From NCBI GenBank assembly GCA_934155645.1, contig CAKPHC010000007.1:9475-73474 (forward strand): a DNA stretch of 64,000 nt, read 5' to 3'. Shown one piece after another: positions 1,964-55,426 of this stretch. Numbering within the stretch: the first letter of the stretch is position 1; the number at the start of each line of letters is the position of its first letter. The position numbers and the translations under genes were made by a program. Source of the stretch: an uncultured Bacilli bacterium (lineage in GTDB: Bacteria; Bacillota_I; Bacilli_A; RF39; UBA660). The notes under the pieces are model-generated. The model was not told the origin of the DNA and did not search any database. It saw only the letters and a list, made by a program, of their open reading frames with translations.

Positions 1964-1974
1964 AATATTTCCTC

Positions 1975-5517: not shown

Positions 5518-5539
5518 TATTTTTTGTAAAAAAAAGATA

Positions 5540-5575
5540 TAGGAAACTATATCTTTAATCCAAATTATTAGTTAA
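5540..5575 (-). terminator. Rho-independent terminator of paralog 2
   Basis: On the minus strand: AAAGATATAG-TTTC-CTATATCTTT stem-loop followed by TTTTTT. Confidence 0.6.
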
Positions 5576-5579
5576 AATC

Positions 5580-6149: not shown

Positions 6150-6185
6150 TTCTAATTTCCTCCCTTGTGTTTATCACACTATAAT

Positions 6186-6731
6186 TTATTTAATTTTTTG
6201 AGTAGCAACTGATGTGATTGATAATTTTGCTGTTTTAGCTGCTGCTGCTGGATCTTCAGTTATAGTACTCTTATATGTTCCTTGAACAGTGATTTCATGA
6301 GTAGCATTTTTACCAGCGTTTGCTAATAACTCTGTAGTTCCATTATTAGTAGCTCCTGTAACAACAAAGTCAATTGCATCTGTTCCATCAGCTCCAGTAA
6401 TTGTATGAGTTAATAATACGTCTACAGTACCACAGTTTTCATATACTACTTGGCAAGTAGCTGTGTCTCCAGGTTGAGTGAATCCCATAGTGATTGTAGC
6501 ATCTAATGCATTACCAGCAACTGATGCTTCAGCAGTAACTGAACCAGCAGCTCCACCTGAAACTGGTGTTTTAGTTGGGCAAGTTGCCTCCTTAATTCTT
6601 ACACACCATTCTGATGCGATTGTTGATGTACCATTAATTGTTAATGTTGTTGCGAATGCAGCGTAAGCTACAGCCATAACACAAACAACTGCACATAACA
6701 TACCAATTACTAAATTCTTACTATCCTTCAT
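6186..6731 (-). CDS. Secreted TasA/camelysin-like protein, paralog 3
   Basis: 181 aa with the same N-terminal module. Contains FTQPGDTATCQVVYENCGTVDVLL. Confidence 0.6.
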   Translation of the reverse strand: MKDSKNLVIGMLCAVVCVMAVAYAAFATTLTINGTSTIASEWCVRIKEATCPTKTPVSGGAAGSVTAEASVAGNALDATITMGFTQPGDTATCQVVYENCGTVDVLLTHTITGADGTDAIDFVVTGATNNGTTELLANAGKNATHEITVQGTYKSTITEDPAAAAKTAKLSITSVATQKIK

Positions 6732-6825
6732 TTTGTTTTTCTCCTTCCTTATCTTATAGATTGATTATAGCAAACATTATTTTAAAAGACAATACTTAAA
6801 ATATAAATTTGCATTTTTTTACACA

Positions 6826-6862
6826 AAATTTTCACAAAAAAACACGACCACTGTAAAGTCAT
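6826..6862 (-). terminator. Rho-independent terminator of paralog 4
   Basis: On the minus strand: AAACATGAC ... GTCGTGTTT stem with one G-U pair, followed by a T-run. Confidence 0.45.
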
Positions 6863-6874
6863 GTTTTTAAACAT

Positions 6875-7405
6875 TTAATTAAAGTTTTGAGTATAATTAG
6901 CAGTTACTTTTAATTCCTTAGTTTTATCGCTATCAAGAGGTTGTGATGTAATACTACTATCATATTTACCAGTTACAACTGCTGTATGTGTACCAGTTGT
7001 TTTTGATAAAACAGCGTTTTCAGTAAGACCTGTTACAGAAAGTCTTATTGGTCCTTCTTCATCTATTCCAGTTATTATTAATTCACTTAATTTTGCATCT
7101 ATATTTCCACAGTTTTCAAATATAATTGTACATACTGCTTGGTCTCCTGGTTGGGTAAACTCCATAGAAACTGTCGCTGTATTATTTGACACTTTACTAG
7201 CAGTAGCAGTAACTGATTCAGCACTTCCTCCGCTTACTGGAGTTGTAACACAAGTAGGATTATCTTTAATTCTTACACACCAATCTGATGTGATTGTTGC
7301 TGTACCGTTTATCTTTAAATTTGTTGCAAATGCTGCATAACCTACAGCCATGATTGCTATTAATGCACACAACAATCCAACTAGTAAACCTTTTTTATCT
7401 TTCAT
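6875..7405 (-). CDS. Secreted TasA/camelysin-like protein, paralog 4
   Basis: 176 aa with the same N-terminal module. Contains FTQPGDQAVCTIIFENCGNIDAKL. Own terminator downstream. Confidence 0.6.
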   Translation of the reverse strand: MKDKKGLLVGLLCALIAIMAVGYAAFATNLKINGTATITSDWCVRIKDNPTCVTTPVSGGSAESVTATASKVSNNTATVSMEFTQPGDQAVCTIIFENCGNIDAKLSELIITGIDEEGPIRLSVTGLTENAVLSKTTGTHTAVVTGKYDSSITSQPLDSDKTKELKVTANYTQNFN

Positions 7406-16896: not shown

Positions 16897-17589
16897 TTAC
16901 ATTTTCTTATTTTTCATAAATTCTCTTAATATTTTAGTAAGAGCGCGTTTTTCAATACGTGATACATAACTTCTCGAAATTTTTAAATCTTTAGCAATTT
17001 CTTTTTGAGTTTGTTCACTAGTATTATTAAGTCCATATCTTTTTATTAGTATTTCTTTTTCTCTTTTATTTAGTACTTTTATATAATCTTTTAGTAACTC
17101 AATATTATCTTTGGTTTGAATTTCTTCAGCAAAATCTGGTTTGGGCATTTTTAAGACATCTAAGATAGTAATTTCGTTACCTTCTTTATCAAAACCGATT
17201 GATTCATTAATTGATATATTTTTGTTGTTTTTATTATTACTTCTAAAGTACATTAGTATTTCATTTTCAATACATCTAGCACAATAAGTTGTTATTCTAG
17301 TACCATGGCGATTAGAGTATGAATCTACTCCTTTTATTAGTCCAATTGTACCTATACTTATTAAGTCATCTTGGTCTACATTTTTATAGTCAAATTTCTT
17401 TACGATGTGTGCGACTAATCTAAGATTATGTTCTATTAGCTTGTTTCTAGCATCTTTATCTCCTAATTTAGCAAGTTCTATATATTTATCCTCTTCTTCT
17501 TTTGTTAATGGGTCTGGGAAAATATTATTAGAATAGGACGCTGTAAAAAACATTAAACTTTTAATTAGTTCTAATAATGACAACCACAT
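16897..17589 (-). CDS. sigK: Sporulation sigma factor SigK (pro-sigma-K), uninterrupted
   Basis: NKLIEHNLRLVAHIVKKF, DLISIGTIGLIKG and YCARCIENEILM closely match the B. subtilis SigK regions. There is an N-terminal pro-sequence and no skin-like insertion. Confidence 0.9.
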   Translation of the reverse strand: MWLSLLELIKSLMFFTASYSNNIFPDPLTKEEEDKYIELAKLGDKDARNKLIEHNLRLVAHIVKKFDYKNVDQDDLISIGTIGLIKGVDSYSNRHGTRITTYCARCIENEILMYFRSNNKNNKNISINESIGFDKEGNEITILDVLKMPKPDFAEEIQTKDNIELLKDYIKVLNKREKEILIKRYGLNNTSEQTQKEIAKDLKISRSYVSRIEKRALTKILREFMKNKKM

Positions 17590-17628
17590 ATACTTCCTCC
17601 TAATAAAGTATATGTTTAGTTTTATAAT

Positions 17629-18909
17629 TTATTTTTCACTATTTAATAACCAGTCGATAACATTGATTTTAGTTATTCCGTCGTAATCAGCATCTAAGTC
17701 CATATCTAAAGTTAATAAATATTTTGGATAATGGTCTCCTGTTTTTTGTAATGATTTCAATTCTCTTTCAAGAACTTTTTCATCTCTTACTGATAATGCA
17801 ACTTGGTAATATCTTAATCCGTCTCTATTTTCAGCTACAAAGTCTACTTCTAAGTCATCTACTTTACCAACATATACTTTGTATCCTCGTCTTAGTAATT
17901 CTAAATACACTATATTTTCTAATACATGCCCCATATCACTATCAGCTTTTTTACCTAAAAGATAACTTCTAAGTCCTGTATCAACCGCATAGTATTTATA
18001 ATCTCTTACTAGAAGATTTTTACCTTTAACATCAAATCTTTCAGCTTTATATATCAAGAAACTTTCTAAAAATGATGTTAGGTAATTTTCTACAGTATGA
18101 TTACTTGTAGACATACCTTTACTTGTTAAAGTATCACTTATTTTTTTAGTGGATACTGGGCTTCCAATACTATCAAAAATAAATTTTAAAATATTTTCTA
18201 ACAGCATTTTATCGGTTATATTATTTCTTGCCATTATATCTTTATAAACAATAGTAGAAAATATTCCGTCTAGGTATTTGTCAACACCATCGGCATTAGT
18301 TTTTAATATATTTATATTTCCAGGCATACCACCATTTCTCATATATTCTAAGAATAATTTTTGGTAATTATCACTATCAAAAGCAGTGACATATTCTTTA
18401 AATGATAGTGGTAACATTTTTATTTCTATATATCTACCTGAAAGTAAAGTCGCAAGTTCACCAGATAATAAATATGCATTAGAACCAGTAATATATACAT
18501 CGACATTTTTCTTTATATATAAACTATCAACAGCTTTCTGAAAATTAGGAACGTTTTGAACTTCATCTAAAAAAACATAATATTGTTTATCAGAATCTAT
18601 TTTAGCATTTATATAATCATAAAGTTCTTTATATCCAGTAAATTCATAATCAACATCTTCTAAATTTATATGAATTATTTGGTCATCACTTATATTATCT
18701 TTTTTTAGATAATTTATGAATAATTCAAATAAAGTGGATTTTCCACATCTTCTTATTCCTGTGATTACTTTGATTAAATCTTTATCTCTCCATTTTTTTA
18801 ATTCTTCTAAATATTCAGGTCTTTCTATCATATCAATCACCTCTAGATAATTATATATCAGCTTTAACTCTAAGTCAAGTTTTGGAAATATTTTTCCAAA
18901 ACTTGACAA
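17629..18909 (-). CDS. AAA+ ATPase of the DUF4143/AAA_14 family
   Basis: Walker A GIRRCGKST and Walker B VFLDEVQ, with a C-terminal DUF4143-like region. Confidence 0.7.
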   Translation of the reverse strand: MSSFGKIFPKLDLELKLIYNYLEVIDMIERPEYLEELKKWRDKDLIKVITGIRRCGKSTLFELFINYLKKDNISDDQIIHINLEDVDYEFTGYKELYDYINAKIDSDKQYYVFLDEVQNVPNFQKAVDSLYIKKNVDVYITGSNAYLLSGELATLLSGRYIEIKMLPLSFKEYVTAFDSDNYQKLFLEYMRNGGMPGNINILKTNADGVDKYLDGIFSTIVYKDIMARNNITDKMLLENILKFIFDSIGSPVSTKKISDTLTSKGMSTSNHTVENYLTSFLESFLIYKAERFDVKGKNLLVRDYKYYAVDTGLRSYLLGKKADSDMGHVLENIVYLELLRRGYKVYVGKVDDLEVDFVAENRDGLRYYQVALSVRDEKVLERELKSLQKTGDHYPKYLLTLDMDLDADYDGITKINVIDWLLNSEK

Positions 18910-20833: not shown

Positions 20834-22477
20834 TTAGTTAACTTTTATAACGTACGGATTATTAAGAGTTCCATCACCACTTGTAATTTCTGCAGTAGAT
20901 TTCAGATTGATGGTCGGGCGCACGCCATTCCTGATGTCCACGTAGTCGATGTCCACGCGACCCCCGGCCACGTTCCACACGATAGCGTCAGAGGCAGAGC
21001 GGTAGGGCGACATTGTCCAGGAAGGACTTCCATTTACTAGATAATAACTTTTATTCTCTATACCATATACTCCACCCGCATATGCTACTTCATCTGCTGT
21101 TATTAACCCTATTGGATATGTTAATGCTTTATTACCTTTTGTTGAAGTTGCTGTTGTATATAAATCATTACTTTGTGGACATTTAAATTGTGGTGTTTTA
21201 TTTAAATAAAGTCTATAATCAGCACCATAAATAGTAAGACCATCAACGCCATCACCACCACTTCTATCTCCACAAAATCCTATATCTACTAAATATGATG
21301 AATAAGTACTTAAATTTGCACTATACCATGTATCTATTGTTGTTTTTATTGCACTTGAATTGGTATTTTTATGAGTTTCAGCATATGTCGATGCACCTGT
21401 TGTTCCATACATATACCCTACATATGTAGCATCATTAGAGTTAGTATTAAACGCACTATTACCTATTGAATCTTGTTTGATTAATCTTATACTTCCATCT
21501 TCATTTATTCTTACTATTCGCCACAAAATTTCTTTTTTTCCCCATGTAGCGTATTCATTTGTATATGTTGTGCCTTCAAATTGAGAACACTTTTCACCAT
21601 TTACATCTCCTGAAATAATTGCACCTACACCATTTCTAGCAAGACAAACCTTTGATTCCTTACATTGACTCTCATTTGTCGTTGGATATTCACCTGCACC
21701 ATTAACATAGACAACCTCATTTCCATTATAAGTACATACATTTACTTTTCCAAATGATACATAGTTATTCTCCACTGCTCCTCTAAAGTAATATGTTGTT
21801 TTATTATCTTCGGTATTTGTACTTGTATAATATAGTCCTTTTCCATTTGTATCACTACTTATTTGTGAAAAATCTATATTTGTATCAGGCTGTGCTGTAT
21901 TATCTTTTAATATTGCTGCTGATAATCTTGTTGTTTTTATTATAGGGTTTTCTGGTGTCACGGTTTCGCTCATATCTTGTACATAATTAATATCAATGGT
22001 TAAAGTATTATCTGTTAAGGCTGGTTGAGTTGTTACATTAGAATCATAACTAATTGTTACGTTAAATGTAGAGGTTTGAGATTTTGCTAATTTGTCTCCT
22101 TTTTTTATTCCAGTTATTTCAAATTTAATAGCATCGCTTCCAGTTTCACTTGCTGTTATATCATTTATTATTGCATCTAATGTTCCTTGATTTGCTACTG
22201 TTATTTTGTAAACTATCTTATCCCCTGGACTTATTAAGTCAACATCAAAAGTAGCACTTGTACCTTCTGCTGTTGGAGCACTTGTTATTGTTACTCCACT
22301 TGTTTTAGATACTTCCTCAATTTTTGTAAATACTACTTTCCAAGTTGATGTAATATTTGCTGTACCATTAATAGTTAGATTCGTTGCAAAAGCTGCATAT
22401 CCTATTGCCATTACACATATTAAACAGCACATTGTTATCATAATTATTTTCTTACTCTTCATATACTTTTCTTCCAT
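20834..22477 (-). CDS. Secreted TasA-like N-domain protein with C-terminal DUF1566/Lcl-like domain; candidate DGR target (paralog 5)
   Basis: N-terminal MKSKKIIMITMCCLICVMAIGYA|AFATNLTINGTANITSTWKV plus LISPGDKIVYKITVANQGTLDAII, as in the four cluster paralogs. C-terminus has YPIGLITADEVAYAGG ... SWTMSPYRSASDAIVWNVAGGRVDIDYVDIRNGVRP, typical of DUF1566-type DGR variable domains. An alternative start at the second Met (22462) is possible. Confidence 0.7.
   Translation of the reverse strand: MEEKYMKSKKIIMITMCCLICVMAIGYAAFATNLTINGTANITSTWKVVFTKIEEVSKTSGVTITSAPTAEGTSATFDVDLISPGDKIVYKITVANQGTLDAIINDITASETGSDAIKFEITGIKKGDKLAKSQTSTFNVTISYDSNVTTQPALTDNTLTIDINYVQDMSETVTPENPIIKTTRLSAAILKDNTAQPDTNIDFSQISSDTNGKGLYYTSTNTEDNKTTYYFRGAVENNYVSFGKVNVCTYNGNEVVYVNGAGEYPTTNESQCKESKVCLARNGVGAIISGDVNGEKCSQFEGTTYTNEYATWGKKEILWRIVRINEDGSIRLIKQDSIGNSAFNTNSNDATYVGYMYGTTGASTYAETHKNTNSSAIKTTIDTWYSANLSTYSSYLVDIGFCGDRSGGDGVDGLTIYGADYRLYLNKTPQFKCPQSNDLYTTATSTKGNKALTYPIGLITADEVAYAGGVYGIENKSYYLVNGSPSWTMSPYRSASDAIVWNVAGGRVDIDYVDIRNGVRPTINLKSTAEITSGDGTLNNPYVIKVN
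20881..21010 (-). other. Candidate DGR variable repeat (VR) at the 3' end of the CDS
   Basis: About 58% GC in a ~27% GC genome. Aligns to the downstream TR with differences almost only at TR adenines. Confidence 0.6.
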
Positions 22478-26206: not shown

Positions 26207-26968
26207 TTATTGTCGAAAATACTTAGATAATTCTTCTTTTTCACTCCTAGTTTTATTTTTATCAAATATGACGTGTTTGTAATCTCTTGACATATTGCCA
26301 ATACTCTTAATAACCTTTATTTTGGGGAATTTATAATCTTTTATATATCTTTCAAGTAAGAATTTATTAAAGTAAAACTTCTCTTTTTTTAACTCATCTG
26401 TCAATTTACAAAATACTAGGATTATAACCATGAATAAACTTAAGGATAAATCCATTTCTTTTTTAAAAATAATTATAATAATACTAAGTATTACTAAGTA
26501 AGATATTCCTATAGTCATTTTAAAACTCTTTCTAAAAGATAGAAAATAATTCAAAACTATATTAAGAAGTTTTCCTCCATCTAATGGATATATAGGTAAT
26601 AGATTAAAAAATAAAATAGATAAATGATAACTCTTAAATAATTCTAAATTATTGTTTTCTAGAAAAAAAGTCATGATAAAAAAATATATAATTTGAATAA
26701 TAGGTCCTGCTAACATAATTAACAGTTCCTCTTTTTTAGGTTTATTTAAATCGTCATTAAATTTAGTGTATCCCCCATATGGATAGAAATATATTTTATC
26801 TACGTTCCATCCTAACAACTTGGCCATAGAATAATGTCCTAATTCATGAATAAAAATTATACTTGAAAAGAATATTACGTTTTTAAATAGTCCTGATGCT
26901 AAGGAAATAATAATGATACCTAAGTATAATGGATGAATATAACTTATTTTAAATATAGTCTTTATAAT
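26207..26968 (-). CDS. spoIVFB: SpoIVFB-like site-2 (M50) metalloprotease; HELGH motif lies upstream of the annotated ATG and there is no canonical start codon
   Basis: The C-terminal motif NLLPIYPLDGGKLL is in the listed ORF. Extending the frame upstream gives ...KISYIHPLYLGIIISLASG...IIFIHELGHYS, matching the B. subtilis SpoIVFB N-terminus, up to a stop at 26969-26971. Only ATT/ATA codons are available as starts, and the 5' end overlaps spoIVFA. Confidence 0.55.
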   Translation of the reverse strand: MIKTIFKISYIHPLYLGIIIISLASGLFKNVIFFSSIIFIHELGHYSMAKLLGWNVDKIYFYPYGGYTKFNDDLNKPKKEELLIMLAGPIIQIIYFFIMTFFLENNNLELFKSYHLSILFFNLLPIYPLDGGKLLNIVLNYFLSFRKSFKMTIGISYLVILSIIIIIFKKEMDLSLSLFMVIILVFCKLTDELKKEKFYFNKFLLERYIKDYKFPKIKVIKSIGNMSRDYKHVIFDKNKTRSEKEELSKYFRQ

Positions 26969-27554
26969 CTAGATATTTCCCTTCTTTTTGAAATACTAAG
27001 TAAAGTTTATCATCTATAGTTTCCCCTAATAAAGCACCTTTACTAACATAATCATATATTTTTATATCACCAATTGATACATTTCCATACCATACATCTA
27101 TTCCATTAATTTGTTGTACTATAATAGTATTACCATAGTTTTCTTTATTACCAATGAATACTACTATACCACTTTCAATAATAGGTACTAAATAATTATT
27201 ATTAACACTTAATTTAACTCCATCTTTGTATAAACTAGCTTCATTATATTTTAATTTCTCATTAAATACTTTCTCATCAGTAGGTGCTATATTATCAAAA
27301 GGTAATATATTTCCAAAATACTTTTTATATAAGTTATTGATATAAGCAAAAGAAAATTGGTCTTCATAAACAACCTTACCTATTTTATCTTTTAGTTTTG
27401 GATTTATTTTTATTACTATTAATAAACTAACGAATATAATTAGACATATTAATATTTTAGTTATCATTTTATAAAGAAATTTATGATTATTTGTACTTTC
27501 TTTAATATTCTTTTTCTTATTGTAAAATTTACTTAATTCTTCCACTATTATCAC
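26949..27554 (-). CDS. spoIVFA: SpoIVFA-like membrane protein with degenerate M23/LytM domain
   Basis: N-terminal TM and a C-terminal LytM-like GNTIIVQQINGIDVWYGNV segment. Upstream partner of spoIVFB as in Bacillus. Confidence 0.5.
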   Translation of the reverse strand: MIIVEELSKFYNKKKNIKESTNNHKFLYKMITKILICLIIFVSLLIVIKINPKLKDKIGKVVYEDQFSFAYINNLYKKYFGNILPFDNIAPTDEKVFNEKLKYNEASLYKDGVKLSVNNNYLVPIIESGIVVFIGNKENYGNTIIVQQINGIDVWYGNVSIGDIKIYDYVSKGALLGETIDDKLYLVFQKEGKYLDYKDYI

Positions 27555-31738: not shown

Positions 31739-31879
31739 CTTTTTTTCCCTCCTTAATTTAAATATTGGAACGTTCTAGAGACATTATTTTATCTTTTTTT
31801 AAATTAAGAGAGAATAATAGTCAAAATACAAGTTCAGTGAACTTCTTCACTTAGTTAAGTGTAGCACACTACTATAAAT

Positions 31880-32140
31880 TATGCAAGGAGTTTAACATTA
31901 ATTACAAAGAAGTATTTTTTGTAGAAGAAAAGAACTTTTATTGTAAAAGTCCTTTGCCTCATTTCTATAATTTTGCTACTATCTACTTTACTAGTATTGG
32001 TAATAGGAAAATAGACCCCTTTCATTTCTGATTAAGTGTCACCCTATATGAGACGACATTCAACGTAGCAAAGCTGAATGTTCCCTTTGTGTAAGCAAAG
32101 ACGATTGCTTACACATCAATAATAACATTGCCTATTTATA
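31880..32140 (+). repeat. Small-peptide cassette copy A (degenerate; peptide frame has no start codon)
   Basis: The frame ...KKRTFIVKVLCLISIILLLSTLLVLVIGK* is preceded by an in-frame TAG. It has the conserved terminator hairpin GACATTCAACG...CTGAATGTTCC plus a U-run, the second hairpin TGTAAGCAA/TTGCTTACA and the AATAACAT box. Confidence 0.55.
32055..32090 (+). terminator. Rho-independent terminator of cassette A
   Basis: Stem ACATTCA / TGAATGT followed by CCCTTTGTG. Confidence 0.5.
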
Positions 32141-32189
32141 TTGTCAAAATGAATTTAATAATTTTTATTAAAAAAATGTACTTGTTCGA

Positions 32190-32219
32190 TTGTTTTTATA
32201 AACACATCTATTATATAAT
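32190..32219 (+). promoter_or_regulatory. Promoter of cassette B
   Basis: TTGTTT, 18 nt, TATAAT. Conserved in position and sequence with cassette C. Confidence 0.5.
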
Positions 32220-32284
32220 TCTTTTTAGGAACATTTGGTTGTTGAGTGTCGTCCTCCAATCTTGATAAAGAAAGGAGGGATACA

Positions 32285-32377
32285 ATGAAGAAAAGAACTT
32301 TTATAATAAAAGTCCTTTGTCTTATTGCTATCATTTTATTACTCCTTACCTTATTGGTAATAGCAATAAAAATATAG
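32285..32377 (+). CDS. 30-aa hydrophobic peptide MKKRTFIIKVLCLIAIILLLLTLLVIAIKI (type I toxin-like)
   Basis: RBS AAAGGAGGG 5 nt upstream, a single TM helix after a KKR N-terminus, and a stem-loop immediately after the stop. Confidence 0.55.
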   Translation: MKKRTFIIKVLCLIAIILLLLTLLVIAIKI

Positions 32378-32417
32378 ACACTCTGTATTTGTAGAGTGTC
32401 TCCCCATCATAGAGGAT

Positions 32418-32456
32418 GACATTCAACGTGACAAAACTGAATGTTCCTCTTTTTTA
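32418..32456 (+). terminator. Rho-independent terminator of cassette B
   Basis: GACATTCAACG-loop-TGAATGTTC followed by TCTTTTTT. Confidence 0.6.
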
Positions 32457-32517
32457 TTATATGTAAGATTTCTTACTTACATACTAATAATAACATAAAT
32501 AATTATTCATGTCAAAA

Positions 32518-40274: not shown

Positions 40275-42107
40275 TTACAATTTTTTCCCTTTATAGAATA
40301 TTCTAGTGGCATTTAATACCGTTATTACGGTTACACCAATATCTGCGAATACTGCCATAATGATTGATGATAAGCCAAATGCTCCTAGAGCTAGAACTAC
40401 AAATTTGATTATTAGAGCAAAAATAATATTTTCCCAAACTATTTTGTTTGTGTAATTGCTGATTTTAATGGCTTTAGTTATATTTAATAGGTTATCGTTC
40501 ATTACTACAATATCACTTGCTTCAATTGCGGCATCACTTCCGATACTACCCATTGATATTCCAAGGTCAGAGTTTAATAACACAATAGCGTCATTAATTC
40601 CATCACCAACAAAGCATACTTTACTATCACATCTTAATTCATTAACTACATCTTTCTTATCAATTGGTTTTAATCCAGATTTATACTGACTAATATTAAG
40701 AGTATTACAAACGTCTTTAACGATTGATTCATTATCTCCAGATAAAACAACTATATTATTTTTATTTAAATCTTTCATTTGTTTAAAGAATTCTTTTGCT
40801 TCCGCTTTAATAACATCACCAATTATAATATTTCCTATATATTTATTGTTTTTTACTACATATACGATAGAACCAACATCATTACACTCTTCTACTTTAA
40901 CTTTATTCTTTTTTAAATAATTGTAGTTACCAATTAAGACATCATCATTATCAATTTTTACTTTAATACCACCGTCTTGTTCTTTAAAATCAGTTATCTT
41001 TTTATTATCAATTTTTTTATTGTAATAAGTTTTAATAGAGTTTGCAATTGGATGATTAGAATGATATTCACTATATGCTGCTAGTTTAATTAATTCTTCT
41101 TTAGTTCCTTCTTTAACATTTATCTTTTTAACTTCAAAGTTTCCTTCGGTAATAGTACCTGTCTTATCAAAAACAAAAGTATCTATTTTTGCTAGTTGTT
41201 CTAAGTCACTACTACTTTTAATTAAAACTCCATGACGTGACGCTAGACCTATTCCACAGAAGTATCCTAAAGGTACTGATAATATTAAGGCACATGGACA
41301 TGATGCCACTAAAAAGATTAGTGCTCGATAAAGCCAAGTATTTAATTCTCCATTAAAGAATATTACTGGAACCAAGAAGATTAAAAGTGATGATATTACT
41401 ACAAATGGTGTATATTTACTAGCAAATTTATTAATAAATTTTTGAGTTCTAGATTTTTTTACATCTGACTCTTCGATAACTTTTAATATTCTTGAAGCGG
41501 TTGACTCTTTAAATAAAGTTGTAACTTTTACTTCTATAATTCCATTTAAATTTATATAACCGGAATAAACTTCTTTATCTTTTGATACATCTCTTGGAAT
41601 AGACTCTCCTGTAATACTAGAAGTATCAACACTACTGTTTCCTTTTACAACTATTCCATCTATTGGTACTCTTTCTCCTGGTCTTACTATTATGGTGTCA
41701 CCAATATTTAAATTTTCTGGTTTTATTACTTCTTCTTTACCATCTTTTAATATTGTTGCTTTGTCACTTCTTAAATCAACTAAGTTTTTAATTGAATCTT
41801 TTGATTTATCTATTCCTAAGTCATTAATATATTCACCTATCTCATAGAAAAGCATAACAGCAACACCTTCTTTATATTCTTTAATAAAGAAAGCACCTAT
41901 TGTTGCTAGAGTCATTAAAAAATTTTCTTCGAAAATTTCACCTTTTTTAAAGTTTTCGATAACTCTTATAAATGTTTCATATCCAATTATGATATATGTA
42001 ATTATTAATACTATTAAAGATAGTTTTTCATCTAGAAAGAAACTAATTATATATAGTATTAAGCTGATAATTATGCGAATTAAATCTTTATTAATAAATT
42101 TAAGCAT
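40275..42107 (-). CDS. cadA: Heavy-metal (Cd/Zn-type) P1B-type ATPase without N-terminal HMA domain
   Basis: CPC motif (SCPCAL), DKTGT phosphorylation site and GDGIND. Starts directly with TM helices. Overlaps the cadC-like gene. Confidence 0.8.
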   Translation of the reverse strand: MLKFINKDLIRIIISLILYIISFFLDEKLSLIVLIITYIIIGYETFIRVIENFKKGEIFEENFLMTLATIGAFFIKEYKEGVAVMLFYEIGEYINDLGIDKSKDSIKNLVDLRSDKATILKDGKEEVIKPENLNIGDTIIVRPGERVPIDGIVVKGNSSVDTSSITGESIPRDVSKDKEVYSGYINLNGIIEVKVTTLFKESTASRILKVIEESDVKKSRTQKFINKFASKYTPFVVISSLLIFLVPVIFFNGELNTWLYRALIFLVASCPCALILSVPLGYFCGIGLASRHGVLIKSSSDLEQLAKIDTFVFDKTGTITEGNFEVKKINVKEGTKEELIKLAAYSEYHSNHPIANSIKTYYNKKIDNKKITDFKEQDGGIKVKIDNDDVLIGNYNYLKKNKVKVEECNDVGSIVYVVKNNKYIGNIIIGDVIKAEAKEFFKQMKDLNKNNIVVLSGDNESIVKDVCNTLNISQYKSGLKPIDKKDVVNELRCDSKVCFVGDGINDAIVLLNSDLGISMGSIGSDAAIEASDIVVMNDNLLNITKAIKISNYTNKIVWENIIFALIIKFVVLALGAFGLSSIIMAVFADIGVTVITVLNATRIFYKGKKL

Positions 42108-42465
42108 TTTTCTCCTCCATTATATGTTCTATTCCAATATTTAGTATTACTTCTACGTGACTATCACCTAATGAGTAATACACTTCTTTTCCTTCTTTTC
42201 TAGTTTTAACCAAATCCATATCTCTTAATACTTTTAATTGATGACTTATTGCTGAATGAGTCATATTAAGTAAATTGGATATATCGCATACACAAAGTTC
42301 CTTGTTTAAAAGTGATAAAAGTATCCTTACTCTTGTATCATCTCCAAAAACTTTGAATAATAAAGATAATTTTGAAGAATAGTAATTATCTATCATGTTT
42401 TCTCTTACAAATTCAATGTTATCATTATGAATTTTTTCTTCTTGGCACTCTACTTGATTTTCCAT
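42100..42465 (-). CDS. cadC: ArsR/SmtB-family metalloregulator (CadC-like)
   Basis: HTH with metal-site Cys in CVCDIS and HQLKVL. Precedes cadA. Confidence 0.75.
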   Translation of the reverse strand: MENQVECQEEKIHNDNIEFVRENMIDNYYSSKLSLLFKVFGDDTRVRILLSLLNKELCVCDISNLLNMTHSAISHQLKVLRDMDLVKTRKEGKEVYYSLGDSHVEVILNIGIEHIMEEKNA

Positions 42466-43309: not shown

Positions 43310-44587
43310 TTAAATGGAAATAATTATGTCTTGAACAAAGAAATTTTGAAATATTTTAGTCTCTAATTGATATATATCTTTATTCTTTGTTATATTTCTT
43401 ATTATTTCCTTCTTTATATTTTCTTCGGTTGTGGAATATTTAATTTTATTGAGTTGTTTAGGTATCGGTTCATCATCAAAGCTATTGGCAACTGTAATAT
43501 GAATTTTTCCGTTTTCTTCATACATTTGAATACTTACCATTTTTTCTTTGTTATTCTTAGATGACTCAATGGCACTGTCTAGTAAGATTCCCATTATTGT
43601 ATATAAGTCATTAACATCTTCTTTTGATAATTCTTTCATTCTTGCGACCGATGGACTCACTAAAATTTCAGGAGTAATTCCGGCGGTTTTCATTTCGGTC
43701 ATCTTTAAATTAATGAATCCTTTCATCCCTAAAATAGGAATATTATTAAATTCTTTTAGCCACTCAGAAGTAATACTTTCTTTTTCATTAACTAGTTTGT
43801 CGACGTACTGGCTAGCTTCTTTTTTATTCTTACTAAGGAGTTTTTTTATAGTTATTAAGTTGTTTTCCCTTTCTCTTAGAGTACGATGGTATTCTTCCAT
43901 TAAAGTTCCATTTGATTTAGCATAGCTAGATATTTCAACATACATTTTTGAAATCATATCCATTTTATTTTCCTTATCGATAATGGCTCCAGTAATTATA
44001 GTTATTAATACTATGATAACAATATCATATAATAGATTAAAATCACGTTTCATGTATGGCATTCTTATTAAGAACACAGATATTAAAGAGAAATAAATTA
44101 ATGTAAATATAACAAAACTATGGCAAGGTTCATTGTTAACTTTTTTAATAACTTTATTCATTATTCTTTGCATTAATATAAAGATTTCTAATGCGATAAT
44201 GGCAGAACAAACATTAGAATTAAATTTTTCTATTGGCAACAAGTTTGTAGCATATATAACACTCGGATGAAATAATCCAAATGCAATTAATACAATTTCT
44301 ACTAACATACGAATTACGTATATAAACAGTGATACTAATAATGTTTTGGCTAACTTTTGTTTAAAAATAATTTTTTGAAACACAACTACTGACATATAAT
44401 AGAAAAATATAGTAAATAGTGGTGTAAAATTATAAATATTTATTACAAAAGATGTAACATATATTACAAACGCTATTATTATATCGCTGTGATTTAATTT
44501 CTGCTTTGGATAAATGATTTTGCTTTTTAGAAATATAGTTAAAGCAAAAATAGTACCATTAATTATACTTAAAATAAACTGCTGCAT
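43310..44587 (-). CDS. Membrane sensor histidine kinase, AgrC/ComD-like (HPK10)
   Basis: Six or more N-terminal TM helices plus a C-terminal GHKL ATPase domain. Paired with the LytTR regulator. Confidence 0.65.
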   Translation of the reverse strand: MQQFILSIINGTIFALTIFLKSKIIYPKQKLNHSDIIIAFVIYVTSFVINIYNFTPLFTIFFYYMSVVVFQKIIFKQKLAKTLLVSLFIYVIRMLVEIVLIAFGLFHPSVIYATNLLPIEKFNSNVCSAIIALEIFILMQRIMNKVIKKVNNEPCHSFVIFTLIYFSLISVFLIRMPYMKRDFNLLYDIVIIVLITIITGAIIDKENKMDMISKMYVEISSYAKSNGTLMEEYHRTLRERENNLITIKKLLSKNKKEASQYVDKLVNEKESITSEWLKEFNNIPILGMKGFINLKMTEMKTAGITPEILVSPSVARMKELSKEDVNDLYTIMGILLDSAIESSKNNKEKMVSIQMYEENGKIHITVANSFDDEPIPKQLNKIKYSTTEENIKKEIIRNITKNKDIYQLETKIFQNFFVQDIIISI

Positions 44588-45484: not shown

Positions 45485-45949
45485 TTATTCACAAGTACAT
45501 TTTTTACCTTCGTGGCAACCGCATGTACACTCTTCATCGCAATTTTCTTCTTTATTATCATTGCAACCACAAGTGCATTCGCTTCCGCATTGGCAATTGT
45601 CATCACATGTGCATTCCTTTCCTTCATGACAACCACAAGTGCAGTTTTCATCACATTTTTTATCTTTTTCCATTTCCATAATTTCACCTCCAATTATTTT
45701 TTCTATGTATTTGCTTATTCTTGCAAAATTTTCTTTTTCTAGTTGATATACTACTTTGTTTCCTTTTTTAATTGGCATAACTAATCTAGCATCTGTTAAA
45801 GCTTTCATATGATGCGACAATGTTGGCTGAGTTACGTTCAAATTTTCCAGAATATTGCAACCGCAGACATTGTGTTTTGATAATATTTCTATTATCTTTA
45901 ACCTATTCTCATCAGCTAAAATTTTAAATAATTCAGATAAATTTGTCAT
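45485..45949 (-). CDS. ArsR/SmtB-family regulator fused to a C-terminal Cys-rich metallothionein-like repeat tail
   Basis: N-terminal HTH (LADENRLKIIEIL ... TLSHHMKAL). C-terminal about 60 aa made of three repeats of CTCGC(H/N)(E/D)GK(E/K)CTC containing 20 Cys. Confidence 0.7.
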   Translation of the reverse strand: MTNLSELFKILADENRLKIIEILSKHNVCGCNILENLNVTQPTLSHHMKALTDARLVMPIKKGNKVVYQLEKENFARISKYIEKIIGGEIMEMEKDKKCDENCTCGCHEGKECTCDDNCQCGSECTCGCNDNKEENCDEECTCGCHEGKKCTCE

Positions 45950-49561: not shown

Positions 49562-49912
49562 TTAATTTTTAGGCCTACAGAATAATGAGAATACAAAAGT
49601 AAAGATAATTGCTGCTGTTATTCCGGATGCAGTTAAATCAAACATTCCCATTAGTATTCCAATAATGCCATACTCACTTGCTTTAGCTAATGCTCCATGG
49701 ATTAGGGAGTGTCCGAAACTAGTAATTGGTACCATTGCTCCTCCACCAACGCACATAATAATTTTATCATAAATGTTAAAAGTATCTAAGGCGGCCCCTA
49801 TAACTACAAATAAACTTGTAATGTGACCTGCAGTTAATTTGGTGTTATCAAGTATTATTTGCCCAGCCATAGATACTAATCCCGCAAAGAGAAATGAATA
49901 AACGTAAATCAT
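49562..49912 (-). CDS. spoVAEB: Stage V sporulation protein AE (SpoVAEB)
   Basis: 116 aa membrane protein downstream of spoVAD. Confidence 0.7.
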   Translation of the reverse strand: MIYVYSFLFAGLVSMAGQIILDNTKLTAGHITSLFVVIGAALDTFNIYDKIIMCVGGGAMVPITSFGHSLIHGALAKASEYGIIGILMGMFDLTASGITAAIIFTFVFSLFCRPKN

Positions 49913-50904
49913 CTTATCGCCTCCAAACTAATTGCATGTGCAATTGAATTTATATGTTCATGTTGATATACAAATGTTGGAGAAAATAATGCTCCAGTTG
50001 CTACAAATAAAACTCTATCAAGTTCCCCTTTTTCCATTTTAGGTAATATTTTTGAATAATTTACTAAAGCACTACAGACTGGACCTGAGCCACCTGCCAT
50101 TACTTCTTCTTGTTTAGATAAATCATAAAGCATTGTTCCAGCATCATCATAATTATTACTAATATCCATGCCATACTCACTGTGCATATAATCAATTAGA
50201 ATTTCTTTTCCATATACTCCTAGGTCTCCTGTAATAATTAGGTCATAATAATTTGGTTCTCTTTTTAATGCTTTTAAATGTTCATATATTGTGTTGCCTG
50301 CTGCTACTGCCATAACTGCTCCCATATTAAACGGGTCTGTTTGACCCATATCAGCTACTCTTCCTATTGTGGAAGATTCAATTTTAATTTTTCCTTTTTC
50401 ATTAGTTAGATAAATACTTGCTCCACCTGTCGAAGTAAAAGTTGCTGTTTTAGGTTTTGGAGCACCATACTCAGTAGGATTTCTAAATTGTTTTTCGCTA
50501 GACATATTATGAGACGAAGTTGCTGCTATACAATTTTTTACTTTACCTCCATCAATTAAACTAGAACCTAATATTATTCCTTCAGCACTAGATGCGCAAG
50601 CACTATATATTCCAAAGAAAGGTATGTCAAACTTTAAAGCAGCATAACTTGATGATGTTACTTGATTTAATAAATCTCCAGATATTAATACATCTATATT
50701 TTTCTTATCTTTATTTACTTTTTTTAACAAGATATCAATACTGTCAGTAAGCAATCTAACTTCTGCTTGTTCCCATGTTTCTTCGCCATTATATAAATTG
50801 GAATAACATTTATCAAAACCCTTTGATAATGGTCCATCTTTTTCGTATGGTCCAGTTACTGTTGAATATCCTCCAACGTATACATTGTTATATTCGTATG
50901 TCAT
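49909..50904 (-). CDS. spoVAD: Stage V sporulation protein AD
   Basis: Thiolase-like fold and the MTYEYNNVYVGGYSTVTGPYE N-terminus typical of SpoVAD. Confidence 0.8.
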   Translation of the reverse strand: MTYEYNNVYVGGYSTVTGPYEKDGPLSKGFDKCYSNLYNGEETWEQAEVRLLTDSIDILLKKVNKDKKNIDVLISGDLLNQVTSSSYAALKFDIPFFGIYSACASSAEGIILGSSLIDGGKVKNCIAATSSHNMSSEKQFRNPTEYGAPKPKTATFTSTGGASIYLTNEKGKIKIESSTIGRVADMGQTDPFNMGAVMAVAAGNTIYEHLKALKREPNYYDLIITGDLGVYGKEILIDYMHSEYGMDISNNYDDAGTMLYDLSKQEEVMAGGSGPVCSALVNYSKILPKMEKGELDRVLFVATGALFSPTFVYQHEHINSIAHAISLEAIR

Positions 50905-50905
50905 G

Positions 50906-51358
50906 TTATAGTCCTCCTAACAATAAATATCTTAGTGTTCCAAAAATCCATGCTGCTACTATTCCATATAGTATTACTGAACCTGCAAGTTTGAAGATAT
51001 TCATACCAAGTCCATATATTGGTCCTTCTTTGCGGTATTCTATTCCAGCACTTGTCATTGAATGAGCAAAACCTGTAATAGGTATTATTAATCCACATCT
51101 TGCAAATGTTACCCATTTATCAAAAAAGCCTAAGGCTGTAAATAGTGATGCTATAAATACTAACGTAACAATCATAAAAACTGAAGCATCTTTGGTAGAT
51201 ATCTCTAACCATGTTGAATAAAAATCAATTAATCCTTGCCCAATTATTCCTACTAATCCACCTACTAAAAAACTTATAAAGGCATTTTGTACCCTATTTT
51301 CTTTTGGTTTATGTCTATCAACAATTTTTTGGTATTCTTTCTTTTCCATTTTTATCAC
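50906..51358 (-). CDS. spoVAC: Stage V sporulation protein AC
   Basis: 150 aa membrane protein with the conserved SpoVAC N-terminus. Confidence 0.75.
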   Translation of the reverse strand: MIKMEKKEYQKIVDRHKPKENRVQNAFISFLVGGLVGIIGQGLIDFYSTWLEISTKDASVFMIVTLVFIASLFTALGFFDKWVTFARCGLIIPITGFAHSMTSAGIEYRKEGPIYGLGMNIFKLAGSVILYGIVAAWIFGTLRYLLLGGL

Positions 51359-51403
51359 CTATCAATATTTTCTCTAATATTGATATTTTTATACAAAAAA
51401 ATA

Positions 51404-52054
51404 CTAACTTGCTAATTTAGTTCTTAGCTTTGTTAGTATTTTAGTTTCATTTCTAGATACTTGAACTTGACTCATCCCTAGAATTTCAGATGTTTCTTGT
51501 TGACTTTTGTCATCATAATACCTAGCTTTTATTAATTTCTTTTCTTCTTCTGATAGTTTTGATATTTCTTCTCTTAAATCTAAGATGTTGTCATCATAAC
51601 CTTTTTCATTGTAACTTATTGAATCATATAAAGTCATTTCTTTACCATCATCATTTAATTCATAATCTAAGCTTTTTACATATTCACTAGCAATTGATGC
51701 TTCATTTATTTTTTCTAATGGTATTTCCAAGAAAAGTGATAATTCTTCATCCGTTGGAGTCCTCATCATTTTTTGTGCTAAAACTTCTCTTGCCTTAGTA
51801 ATAGAATTGTTTAAAGAAATCAAATCTTTACTTATTTTTATTACATTATTCTCTCTTATATATTTAAGTATTTCTCCTTTTATATACAAATATACATATG
51901 AAGATAAGTTATTACTTCCCTTACTTGCATCATAATTTTCCATAGCTTTCATGCAACCAATTCTTCCTTGTTGGCACAAATCTTCAAAATCATTACCAAA
52001 ACTATACTTGTGTGCAATACTGTAAATCATTTTTTCATAATCTTGTCCGTTCAT
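51404..52054 (-). CDS. sigF: SigF/SigB-group sigma factor, N-terminally short (216 aa)
   Basis: Region 4 ETSEILGMSQVQVSRNETKIL closely matches SigF. About 40 residues of region 1.2/2.1 appear to be missing relative to SigF. Confidence 0.65.
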   Translation of the reverse strand: MNGQDYEKMIYSIAHKYSFGNDFEDLCQQGRIGCMKAMENYDASKGSNNLSSYVYLYIKGEILKYIRENNVIKISKDLISLNNSITKAREVLAQKMMRTPTDEELSLFLEIPLEKINEASIASEYVKSLDYELNDDGKEMTLYDSISYNEKGYDDNILDLREEISKLSEEEKKLIKARYYDDKSQQETSEILGMSQVQVSRNETKILTKLRTKLAS

Positions 52055-52063
52055 ATTATCTCC

Positions 52064-52402
52064 TTAAATATTAATTATATTAAATGCACTAATTTCTCTT
52101 TCTGATAAATATATTTTATTTAATTCTCCTTGTTTTATATTAAGCTTTAGTGGACTATAATAACCACATATTAATAATCTTCCATCTTTTCCAATTAGCA
52201 TTTTATAACGCTCAACCATATTATTTAATTCATTGTTATTTATAATAGTAGTTTTTTCTAAGTTTATTAATAAATACTTAATACCAGCTTTCCTTATAGT
52301 ATCATCAATTATTTTTAATTTAGATGCTGTACTTTTATTTAATTCTCCTATCAATCTTACAAATAGTATTCCTCTTTTAAATTCAAATTCTATTTTAAGC
52401 AT
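52064..52402 (-). CDS. spoIIAA: SpoIIAA-like STAS-domain protein (anti-anti-sigma) lacking the phosphorylatable Ser
   Basis: ILFVRLIGELNKSTASKL aligns with the SpoIIAA N-terminus. The DSSG phosphosite is replaced by NNNE. Confidence 0.55.
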   Translation of the reverse strand: MLKIEFEFKRGILFVRLIGELNKSTASKLKIIDDTIRKAGIKYLLINLEKTTIINNNELNNMVERYKMLIGKDGRLLICGYYSPLKLNIKQGELNKIYLSEREISAFNIINI

Positions 52403-52467
52403 ATTATCTCCTCGCTATTAAATATAGTTTATATTTGTTTTATTTTATACCAATTCGACAAAACTAT

Positions 52468-53310
52468 TTATTTTTTTCGTACGACAAAAATCGACATTAG
52501 AATTAAAAAGATTACATAAAAGGCACAAGTACTATAATAAAACCATGTTATATCACTCTTACAATAAATTATTTTTGGTAAAGTAATTGGTTCTATTTTT
52601 AAAGGAGTTTCTACTATTTTAATTGTCTCTTCAGGATAATATTCACTAATATATTTGTTTTCTGTATAATTATTTGTAATGTTATTTACTGGCTCAGTAA
52701 CAATCGGTTCTTTAACATCATTTTTAGAAATATTTACAACTAAAGATACCTTTCTTTCTATATCAGAAGCCGATATTACTAATTCATATATATCATTTTT
52801 CTTTAAATCATATTCTCCTTTTATTTTTATTTCATCTTTCTTAAAATTAGTGTTCATATAACTATAAATGTCAAAGTCATAATCGTTGACAATTATTACT
52901 TCTGGTATTATTAAATACTCAGCCTTTTCAATTAAAACCTTCTTAGACATAACTGTACCTTGATAGATAAAATCTATTGAAGATTCACAATGATTCATTG
53001 TATCTAAATCATAATATAGTATTACATCTATTTCTTCTAGTGGAATATTAGTATATAAATAACTTTTGGGGTCAACATCTTTAGAATATACAACAAATTC
53101 ATCAGGAATTTCTATAAATCTTCTATACCTATATTTATATCTTAAGAAGCCAAATTCATAGTCTTTTTCTACTTCCACATCATAGCTTTCTTCTATTTCA
53201 AAGTCAGCATATTCGTATTCACTTTCATTAAAATAATAAACTTCTCCTTTTACTTCTTGCGGTATTATGAACATTAGAAAAAGAAAAGCAAATAAAAATA
53301 TTTTCTTCAT
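52468..53310 (-). CDS. Hypothetical secreted protein with C-terminal TM anchor
   Basis: Signal peptide, acidic Tyr/Glu-rich body and a C-terminal hydrophobic helix. Confidence 0.45.
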   Translation of the reverse strand: MKKIFLFAFLFLMFIIPQEVKGEVYYFNESEYEYADFEIEESYDVEVEKDYEFGFLRYKYRYRRFIEIPDEFVVYSKDVDPKSYLYTNIPLEEIDVILYYDLDTMNHCESSIDFIYQGTVMSKKVLIEKAEYLIIPEVIIVNDYDFDIYSYMNTNFKKDEIKIKGEYDLKKNDIYELVISASDIERKVSLVVNISKNDVKEPIVTEPVNNITNNYTENKYISEYYPEETIKIVETPLKIEPITLPKIIYCKSDITWFYYSTCAFYVIFLILMSIFVVRKK

Positions 53311-54277: not shown

Positions 54278-55426
54278 TTAAATCATATTTCCTAGTAGTA
54301 TGTCTTTTAATGTTACTAGTATTGTTTTAAAGTATCCTAGTTTTTTTACATCTTCGTTTACAATTAAATCAACTTTTTTTATTGTTTTATTATTATCTTT
54401 AACTAATACTTTACCTATTACATCACCTTTTTTAAGAGGTAATTTTATTTCTTCTAGTTTAACATCTAAATCATATTTTTTACTTATCTCAGATTTTTTC
54501 TTTAATACTACTATATCTTCTTTAGGTGATAAACTAACCTTATTTTTAGTACCTTTATCTATTTTTATTTCTTGAATAATATCACTTTTATTCTTTACCA
54601 CATCTACTTTATATAAATTAAATCCATAATCCAGTAATTCTGAAGTCTCTTGATTCCTTACTTTTCCTGATACTTCCCCTAATACGATTGCAACTAAACG
54701 CATACCATCTCTTTTGGCAGTAACAGCCATACAATATCCAGCATTGTCAGTAAATCCTGTTTTTAAGCCATCGGCACCTTCATAGAATCTTACTAATTTA
54801 TTAGTATTAACAACCCAGTATTTATTAGGAGTATCTTGTCTTATATAATCTTCATATACTTTGGAAAATTCTAATATTTGTTCATGTTTTAATAATTCCT
54901 TAGCAATTAATCCCATATCGTATGCACTTGAATAATGATTTTCTTCATCTAGACCAGTTGGATTAACAAAATGAGTGTTTTTTAATCCTAGTTCTTTAAC
55001 TTTGTCGTTCATCTGTTTTACAAATGCATCTTCAGTTCCTGCTATTCGTTCTGCCATTGCTACTGTTGCATCATTAGCACTTGCCATAGTAATACCTTTC
55101 ATTAAATCTCTTACAGTCATTTCTTCACCTGGTTGTAACCATATTTGGGAACCGCCCATACCTGCGGCATTACTACTTACTTTTATTTTTTCATCCCAAG
55201 TTAAGGTCCCTTTTTCGATGTTTTCTAGAATTATAATTTGTGCAACCATTTTAGTCATAGAAGCAACTGATACTTTTTCATTTTTGTTTTTTTCATATAA
55301 TATTTCACCAGTACTAGCTTCTATTAATAATCCATTTTTAGCATTTGGTAATAACTCTTCCGCTTTAGTACTTAATGGAAATAAAAGAATCGTCATTAAT
55401 AATATAATAAATAATTTCTTTAACAT
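54278..55426 (-). CDS. dacF: D-alanyl-D-alanine carboxypeptidase (PBP5/DacF-type serine peptidase S11)
   Basis: Signal peptide, SMTKM (SxxK), SAN and KTG motifs, and a C-terminal beta domain. Confidence 0.8.
   Translation of the reverse strand: MLKKLFIILLMTILLFPLSTKAEELLPNAKNGLLIEASTGEILYEKNKNEKVSVASMTKMVAQIIILENIEKGTLTWDEKIKVSSNAAGMGGSQIWLQPGEEMTVRDLMKGITMASANDATVAMAERIAGTEDAFVKQMNDKVKELGLKNTHFVNPTGLDEENHYSSAYDMGLIAKELLKHEQILEFSKVYEDYIRQDTPNKYWVVNTNKLVRFYEGADGLKTGFTDNAGYCMAVTAKRDGMRLVAIVLGEVSGKVRNQETSELLDYGFNLYKVDVVKNKSDIIQEIKIDKGTKNKVSLSPKEDIVVLKKKSEISKKYDLDVKLEEIKLPLKKGDVIGKVLVKDNNKTIKKVDLIVNEDVKKLGYFKTILVTLKDILLGNMI

Follow-up and report, generated by a model that had tools for sequence, protein, structure and literature searches.

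A two-gene spoIIA-like locus without spoIIAB in uncultured, AT-rich gut Bacilli

In a 64,000-nt stretch of DNA from an uncultured Bacilli bacterium of the order RF39 (GenBank assembly GCA_934155645.1, contig CAKPHC010000007.1; the whole stretch is called the window here), two genes stand where the spoIIA operon would be expected. One encodes a STAS-domain protein in which the phospho-acceptor serine of SpoIIAA is replaced, and the other a SigF-like sigma factor that is short at its N-terminus; spoIIAB is missing. The locus is probably orthologous to the spoIIA operon and represents a derived version of it with two genes, STAS-sigmaF', long since fixed across a large clade of gut Bacilli that are uncultured and AT-rich. 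In textbooks, cell-type-specific gene expression during endospore formation begins with the activation of sigma-F by the partner switch of SpoIIE, SpoIIAA and SpoIIAB, and the interval between dacF and spoVA is the usual site of spoIIAA-spoIIAB-sigF in Bacillus.

The STAS and sigma genes at the spoIIA position

The STAS gene (52064-52402, minus strand; 112 aa) is followed after 9 nt by the sigma factor gene (51404-52054, minus strand; 216 aa), an exact match to the open reading frames (ORFs) and the gap recorded in an initial annotation of the sequence. The spacer (52055-52063, minus strand, within taaGGAGataatATG) lies at the place expected for spoIIAB and carries an AAGGAG Shine-Dalgarno sequence. 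A degraded spoIIAB remnant between the two genes was considered and rejected, as the gap is only 9 nt and tblastn was negative. The STAS stop and the sigma start share one frame in the window (52052-52066, minus strand: TAA GGA GAT AAT ATG). Stop-codon readthrough to give a STAS-sigma fusion was therefore considered as well, but the frames differ in two related loci (L001 and L003), and we treat the shared frame as chance.

The locus sits at the ancestral dacF-[spoIIA]-spoVACDE-scpAB position. The window is AT-rich throughout (21-32% GC), and its minus strand carries almost all genes. On that strand, the upstream marker of the ancestral dacF-spoIIA-spoVA synteny block is a gene for a dacF-like D-Ala-D-Ala carboxypeptidase (54278-55426, minus strand; Pfam Peptidase_S11, 260 bits, plus PBP5_C). 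Genes for a GNAT acetyltransferase, a 99-aa protein and a 280-aa membrane protein then lead to the STAS gene. After the sigma gene come spoVAC (50906-51358, minus strand; Pfam SpoVAC_SpoVAEB, 110.6 bits; TIGR02838, 156.9 bits), spoVAD (49909-50904, minus strand; NF006160, 408.9 bits, above the cutoff of 402) and a spoVAEB-type spoVAE (49562-49912, minus strand; TIGR02839, 124.5 bits), and beyond spoVAE lie scpA and scpB. A dacF-like gene is likewise found upstream of the STAS or SpoIIAA gene in the related loci L001 and L007 and in a canonical outgroup locus, L016, which reads dacF-SpoIIAA(FMDSSG)-SpoIIAB-SigF-spoVAC-spoVAD-spoVAE. The GTG start listed for spoVAC in the window is probably wrong: relatives begin MEKKEYQK, and an ATG at 51349 follows an AGGTGA Shine-Dalgarno sequence.

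By sequence and by fold, the STAS protein is closest to SpoIIAA. It scores 22.8 bits with the Pfam STAS model (cutoff 22.6), and its top NCBIfam model is SpoIIAA (TIGR02886), at 45.7 bits against an equivalog cutoff of 114.75. In phmmer comparisons with the 1TH8 and 1AUZ chains, residues 2-97 (96 residues) matched the SpoIIAA proteins of G. stearothermophilus (E 4.5e-10, 1TH8_B) and B. subtilis (E 1.8e-08). An AlphaFold2 model built with 49 homologues has a pLDDT of 85, and its best matches in the PDB (Foldseek) are the SpoIIAA chains 1THN_B and 1TH8_B, at a TM score of 0.80. As in L016, the gene is the first of the operon between dacF and sigF-spoVA; the gene directly downstream, 9 nt on, is that of the sigma factor and not spoIIAB.

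The initial annotation had the STAS protein aligning to SpoIIAA with NNNE in place of the DSSG phospho-loop, and phmmer bears this out. The loop aligns without a gap, FMDSSGLGVI of SpoIIAA to IINNNELNNM of the window protein (FMDSSGLGVILGRYK vs IINNNELNNMVERYK), so that the phospho-acceptor Ser58 is Asn here; Asp57 and Gly60 are gone too. We found 51 homologues of the protein, the full-length ones being 102-124 aa. Clade-wide, the residue at position 58 is N, D, H, P, K, E, L or M, with Ser or Thr in two members only. The D-x-x-G pattern is kept in deep branches (DKYG, DEKG, DERG, DLKG, DMTG) and lost in the subclade of the window. The STAS core is conserved, as is a GEL(N/D) loop. With neither Ser nor Thr conserved at position 58, we take a phosphorylation cycle at the canonical site to be excluded.

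Regions 2, 3 and 4 were all found in the 216-aa sigma factor with Pfam. The SigF-like residues that had been quoted for it (GMSQVQVSRNETKIL) are present, and its region 4.2 carries SQVQVSR, as in SigF. NCBIfam models place it nearest the SigB/F/G subfamily (TIGR02980, 161.1 bits; cutoff 234.35) and SigF (TIGR02885, 142 bits; cutoff 321.45), followed by SigG (106-111 bits) and SigB (99.9 bits), with all scores below the cutoffs. In blastp against B. subtilis SigF, SigG and SigB it scored 120, 102 and 99.8 bits, respectively; of these reference sequences, that of SigF agrees with the 1L0O alignment. SigF, rather than SigG or SigB, was also the best B. subtilis match for 99 of 104 representatives of the short sigma family.

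The N-terminus of the sigma factor is indeed short, although the figure of about 40 residues given initially was an overestimate. Residue 8 corresponds to residue 39 of the 243-residue sigma-F chain of 1L0O and to residue 43 of B. subtilis SigF. By alignment, the protein starts ~35 aa late relative to B. subtilis SigF and ~24 aa late relative to P0257, its nearest canonical relative; depending on the model, it begins at profile position 12/227, 22/231 or 43/252. It thus starts inside region 2.1; what the otherwise group-3 architecture lacks is the N-terminal helix resembling region 1.2, together with the opening turns of region 2.1. In an AlphaFold2 model, residues 3-17 form the first sigma-2 helix, with normal sigma-2, sigma-3 and sigma-4 domains after it. 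An in-frame TAA, the stop codon of the STAS gene, lies four codons 5' of the ATG. A longer ORF is therefore impossible, and an upstream non-ATG start was ruled out on the same ground.

These scores leave room for a different origin, in which a paralogous STAS-sigma module, such as a SigB-like stress system, adjoins spoVA by chance and the genuine spoIIA operon lies at another site. The two proteins pass none of the family-specific NCBIfam cutoffs, and 5 of the 104 short representatives match SigB or SigG marginally better than SigF. We nevertheless consider such an origin very unlikely. The flanks are those of the canonical outgroup operon, dacF upstream and spoVACDE downstream; SigF scores highest among the specific models and in the B. 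subtilis comparison, the STAS protein comes nearest to SpoIIAA by sequence as well as by fold, and the canonical locus too has a TGTCGAA heptamer at about -58/-60.

Distribution, descent and the missing kinase

The short sigma factor is widespread. Among 663 detectable homologues, the full-length ones within the best 120 (down to 51% identity) measure 212-225 aa, with one exception of 243 aa. In an exhaustive search with clusters formed at 50% identity, ~100 of the 150 best cluster representatives measure 213-226 aa, and a protein identical to the window sigma was found in a cluster of 23 member sequences. Two over-long members, P0200 (698 aa, with an unrelated 485-aa N-terminal part) and P0231 (365 aa, with a duplicated internal segment), look like chimeras of gene calling or assembly, and a STAS-sigma fusion is seen in neither.

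Gene order was compared in nine more loci, all independently assembled (L001, L002, L003, L004, L007, L013, L014, L017 and L018; from Hadza human gut, rabbit, JGI and ENA metagenomes and one NCBI metagenome-assembled genome (MAG)). All nine have the STAS gene and, after 4-13 nt, the short sigma gene, followed by spoVAC and, on contigs long enough, by spoVAD and spoVAE; no HATPase gene was found in any of them. In seven (L001, L002, L003, L004, L007, L013 and L014), the spacer is 9-13 nt and carries the same Shine-Dalgarno sequence. The arrangement is kept at sigma identities down to 36% and STAS identities down to about 28-33%. Lack of spoIIAB, lack of the phospho-serine and a short sigma factor co-occur in every spoVA-linked member examined, whereas L016 has all three ancestral traits. 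Its SpoIIAA (127.6 bits) and SpoIIAB (183 bits) are both over their equivalog cutoffs, and its SigF, P0257 (240 aa, 42% identical to the window sigma), is the best-scoring long-form relative. The two-gene arrangement is a character of the clade and not a recent lesion: so broad a conservation across independent loci rules out a recent deletion or misassembly. For the same reason, the chance that the locus is an artefact, a region collapsed or deleted in one assembly, is negligible, given an identical sigma factor in a 23-member cluster and a recurrence of the arrangement in independent NCBI, ENA, JGI and Logan assemblies from different hosts.

Two distant short SigF-like sigma factors lie in other surroundings, without a STAS gene. 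P0224 (L010; 42% identical) is encoded upstream of rlmN, and P0267 (L011/L012; 35%) in a defence island with HamA/DEAD-helicase genes upstream and KAP NTPase and MmeI genes downstream. As these contexts are not those of sporulation, the short sigma family has non-sporulation members.

We next considered the kinase. With SpoIIAB of the outgroup and of B. subtilis as tblastn queries, no match at E<0.1 came up in the 64 kb of the window or in ~190 kb of related loci, save in the canonical outgroup. The claim that no GHKL anti-sigma kinase is encoded nearby thus holds. The window encodes a single GHKL protein, an AgrC histidine kinase-like membrane protein of 425 aa (43310-44587) whose gene stands beside that of a LytTR regulator ~7 kb from the locus, and a single PP2C protein, a phosphatase of the Stp1 type (259 bits) next to PrkC. 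The outgroup SpoIIAB shares 55-68% identity with its counterparts in Bacillus or Peptostreptococcaceae, as found in searches that included 5.8 billion proteins, so a retained copy should be easily detected. Among the 120 matches listed, the L016 SpoIIAB is closest to a protein of a MAG labelled "Tenericutes bacterium".

A 2024 presence/absence survey of KEGG orthologues (KOs) in high-quality genomes found spoIIAB and spoIIE reduced or absent in RF39 (Microb Genom 2024, PMC10868615), which is likely to be independent, genome-wide support for the absence of both kinase and phosphatase. Turicibacter, by comparison, has the canonical trio (PMC13492147).

The switch could also be dispersed, with a SpoIIAB- or RsbW-type anti-sigma factor, and perhaps SpoIIE, encoded elsewhere and the STAS protein acting as a non-phosphorylatable antagonist regulated by its abundance. 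The window covers 64 kb of the genome, the conserved GEL(N/D) loop and STAS core would fit such an antagonist, and STAS proteins with unlinked or non-canonical partners are known, such as PA3347, which binds the anti-sigma factor FlgM (PMC8256260). Even so, a dispersed switch seems unlikely to us. Neither the window nor the ~190 kb of related loci holds a GHKL anti-sigma gene; SpoIIAB is conserved and readily detected, yet the KO survey finds it, and spoIIE too, reduced or absent in RF39 (PMC10868615). The sigma factor has moreover lost its N-terminus and with it part of region 2.1, a reported contact region of SpoIIAB. A kinase would also be pointless here, as the STAS protein lacks the substrate serine and, in B. 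subtilis, the non-phosphorylatable S58A variant of SpoIIAA holds SpoIIAB permanently.

To gauge constraint, we compared the window with L001 (dS 0.8-1.2). The dN/dS ratios are 0.22 for the STAS gene and 0.13 for the sigma gene, compared with 0.03-0.05 for spoVAC, spoVAD, spoVAE and scpA (0.05 for spoVAD and 0.03 for spoVAE) and 0.13 for dacF. Both genes are under purifying selection, which is weaker than that on their neighbours. No disrupted copies were seen among about 170 homologues. Pairwise sigma distances correlate with SpoVA protein distances (r = 0.90-0.94), which indicates vertical descent, and both genes of the operon fit the tree of the spoVA genes.

The initial annotation had left two alternatives, a rewired forespore partner switch or a deletion that made the lineage sporulation-defective. 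The data favour the former. As a recent defect, the latter is unsupported, considering the ten loci, the dN/dS ratios of 0.22 and 0.13, and the conserved spoVA genes and Spo0A-box-like motifs. The most economical origin, judged against L016, would be one ancient deletion of ~0.5 kb that ran across spoIIAB and the first ~24 codons of sigF and was later fixed.

Control signals and other genes of the window

Three Spo0A-box-like heptamers lie upstream of the STAS gene (52454-52496, minus strand): TGTCGAT (52490-52496), TGTCGTA (52480-52486) and TGTCGAA (52454-52460), at -94, -84 and -58 from its ATG. The -58 heptamer, or a variant with one mismatch, recurs at a nearly equal distance in L001, L002, L003, L004, L007, L013 and L014 and in the canonical L016. 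TGTCGAA is not enriched in the window as a whole (4 found vs 2.7 expected), and the weight of the motif therefore rests on its positional conservation. On this basis, Spo0A would be predicted to bind at these boxes.

A forespore-type promoter-like motif precedes spoVAC (51366-51394, minus strand). It consists of GTATA (51390-51394), a 15-nt spacer and GAGAAAATA (51366-51374). Similar motifs were seen in L002, L003 and L007 (GTATA-N15-GGGAAAATA, GGGAAACTA and GGGACAATA) and in L001 (GTATA-N16-GGAACAATA), giving a subclade form GTATA-N15/16-GG..A.A.TA. Upstream of spoVAC in L014 and the canonical L016 there is instead a sigma-G-type -10 element, CATAATA/CATACTA, at N17-18. We take the Helmann and Moran consensus to be GCATR-15-GGHRARHTX for sigma-F and GHATR-18-CATXHTA for sigma-G. 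By that yardstick the motif of the window subclade appears sigma-F-like and that of L014 and L016 sigma-G-like, a lead which hints that spoVA may have moved from one forespore sigma regulon to the other. The DNA that separates the sigma gene from spoVAC showed no intrinsic terminator.

Other sporulation genes are kept in the window. sigK (region 16897-18909, minus strand) is intact, uninterrupted and above the SigK equivalog cutoff. A gene for a 426-aa AAA_14/DUF4143 ATPase lies directly upstream of it in the window and in L019 and is absent in L020, and so is a variable insertion. Genes for an M23 peptidase and a weakly matching M50 protease (26207-27554, minus strand) follow radC-mreC-mreD, which is the position of spoIVFA/spoIVFB; no NCBIfam model matched this pair at E<1e-5. 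Taken together, the selection on the operon, the promoter motifs, sigK and the M23/M50 pair look like parts of a working, if reduced, sporulation programme.

The same observations bear on whether these genes are relics of a pathway under loss, the clade being sporeless and the STAS and sigma genes drifting or co-opted for another regulon. We regard this as quite unlikely. The faster evolution of the two genes relative to their neighbours would fit, as would P0224 and P0267, the short SigF-like sigma factors without a STAS gene in non-sporulation contexts, the repeated loss of sporulation in related orders (PMC10868615) and the rating of RF39 as non-sporulating by SpoMAG. That classifier, however, itself leans on genes such as spoIIAB. 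Against decay stand the dN/dS ratios (0.13-0.22, and 0.03-0.05 for spoVAC, spoVAD and spoVAE), the want of any disrupted copy in about 170 homologues, the intact sigK, the spoIVFA/spoIVFB-like pair, and the conserved Spo0A-box-like motif and forespore-type promoter.

Several further features of the window lie apart from the spoIIA position. Four tandem paralogous secreted proteins (~180 aa) and a 547-aa protein, encoded at 4939-7405 and 20834-22477 (minus strand), share the N-terminus MKDxKxL..G.LCA....MAV.YAAF.T.LTINGT; proteins of this type are encoded beside Tad/CpaF-type pilus genes (237-4132). A gene-poor region of ~0.8 kb (31740-32517) carries a repeat that, in three small ORFs, reads RQRTFIIKVLFF, and has a weak, sub-threshold Rfam match to the Mycoplasma small RNA (sRNA) MCS4 (28 bits vs a gathering score of 56). 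An ArsR-type regulator (45485-45949, minus strand) has a metallothionein-like C-terminal tail rich in CxC/CxxC repeats; not far from it are genes for a P-type ATPase (40275-42107) and for another ArsR-like protein (42100-42465).

Sigma-F regulation without the partner switch

How might such an operon work? The conservation of the TGTCGAA boxes suggests that it is still turned on by Spo0A at the onset of sporulation, and the short sigma factor would still drive forespore-type promoters, for example the predicted one before spoVAC. For these two steps, expression from a Spo0A-type promoter and activity at forespore-type promoters, we have fair confidence in what the motifs predict. Control of the sigma factor would then proceed without the phosphorylation-based SpoIIE/SpoIIAA~P/SpoIIAB partner switch. 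The STAS protein must still have a role, because its gene is kept, is tightly coupled to the sigma gene and is under selection. It may work without phosphorylation, by binding the truncated sigma factor or a partner that is not a kinase. Compartment specificity would come from a source other than SpoIIE, for instance an unstable inhibitor combined with transient genetic asymmetry. Dworkin and Losick reportedly found in 2001 that such a combination, with SpoIIAB as the unstable inhibitor, contributes in B. subtilis. Region 2.1 of SigF is said, from work of Decatur and Losick in 1996, to be one of three genetically defined regions in contact with SpoIIAB; if so, joint loss of the sigma N-terminus and of SpoIIAB is coherent. 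Non-phosphorylated STAS action with a non-SpoIIE source of specificity is the mechanism we prefer, with low confidence.

A more far-reaching version of this mechanism holds that the whole clade, possibly at the level of the order, makes endospores without the SpoIIE/SpoIIAA~P/SpoIIAB switch, which is held to be universal in sigma-F activation, and that the STAS protein directly controls the truncated sigma-F as an anti-sigma factor or chaperone, the antagonist having taken the place of the anti-sigma. We put this forward as conceivable and hold it doubtful.

A number of observations weigh against a working two-gene spoIIA operon and must be set beside the evidence for it. There is no cultured member of the clade, sporulation has never been observed in it, and SpoMAG assigns RF39 MAGs a sporulation probability of 0% (PMC12536801). 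The STAS and sigma genes evolve 3-6 times faster than their neighbours, which could reflect relaxed constraint, and a mirror-tree test shows no specific STAS-sigma co-evolution signal (partial r = 0.11). Two STAS members, P0153 and P0161, have Ser or Thr at position 58, and the loop around that position is hypervariable in the window's subclade, so that no particular binding surface is indicated. Finally, our searches extended over 64 kb of the window genome and up to ~20 kb around each relative; an unlinked SpoIIAB- or RsbW-type protein, SpoIIE or a second full-length sigF would lie beyond that reach.

Comparison with known systems helps to place the locus. It shares with the canonical spoIIA operon of B. 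subtilis and the Clostridia, where SpoIIE also acts, the dacF/spoVA position, the SpoIIAA fold, SigF-like regions 2-4 and Spo0A-box-like motifs upstream. It differs in having no spoIIAB, no Ser58/DSSG and a sigma factor short by 24-35 residues, and in family scores of 45.7 vs 114.75 and 142 vs 321. The reported absence of spoIIAB and spoIIE in RF39 (PMC10868615) is probably the same phenomenon, small AT-rich genomes of gut Bacilli keeping many sporulation genes and not spoIIAB; that survey describes no serine-less STAS protein, truncated sigma factor, locus structure or promoter motifs. The loss of spoIIAB is thus partly anticipated there, whereas the retained, serine-less STAS protein and the truncated sigma factor appear to be undescribed in the literature.

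The RsbV-RsbW-SigB system likewise pairs a STAS antagonist with a group-3 sigma factor of the SigB/F/G subfamily, but depends on RsbW as kinase and on PP2C phosphatases whose target is a conserved serine, whereas the locus here has neither kinase gene nor serine. STAS-only proteins such as V. fischeri SypA, P. aeruginosa PA3347 (with FlgM) and R. capsulatus RbaV (PMC8256260) have a partner that is not a GHKL anti-sigma or is not known, and so set a precedent for a change of partner; all of them, however, use a conserved phosphorylatable serine with a cognate kinase and phosphatase, and none belongs to a sporulation cascade. Compact sigma factors (FliA/sigma-28 and extracytoplasmic function (ECF) group 4) function with little or no region 1.2. 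Unlike these, the window sigma has its sigma-3 domain complete, retains regions 2 and 4 of the SigF type, and is a shortened group-3 factor, not an ECF one.

Gene-content work treats spoIIAB as present in every spore-former (Galperin 2022 preprint; SpoMAG 2025), and in SpoMAG it is among nine genes found in all predicted spore-formers (PMC12536801). If our reading is true, classifiers based on spoIIAB would systematically miscall this clade as non-sporulating, which would affect inferences about transmission of uncultured gut bacteria. A group-3 sigma factor, it would follow, can shed its region 1.2-like helix and yet stay under purifying selection. If so large and abundant a gut clade keeps sigF', sigK, spoVA and a Spo0A-type promoter without the kinase, the phospho-site and probably SpoIIE, then forespore-specific activation would be achievable in some other way, and the clade would offer a natural minimal system for what compartment-specific sigma activity really needs.

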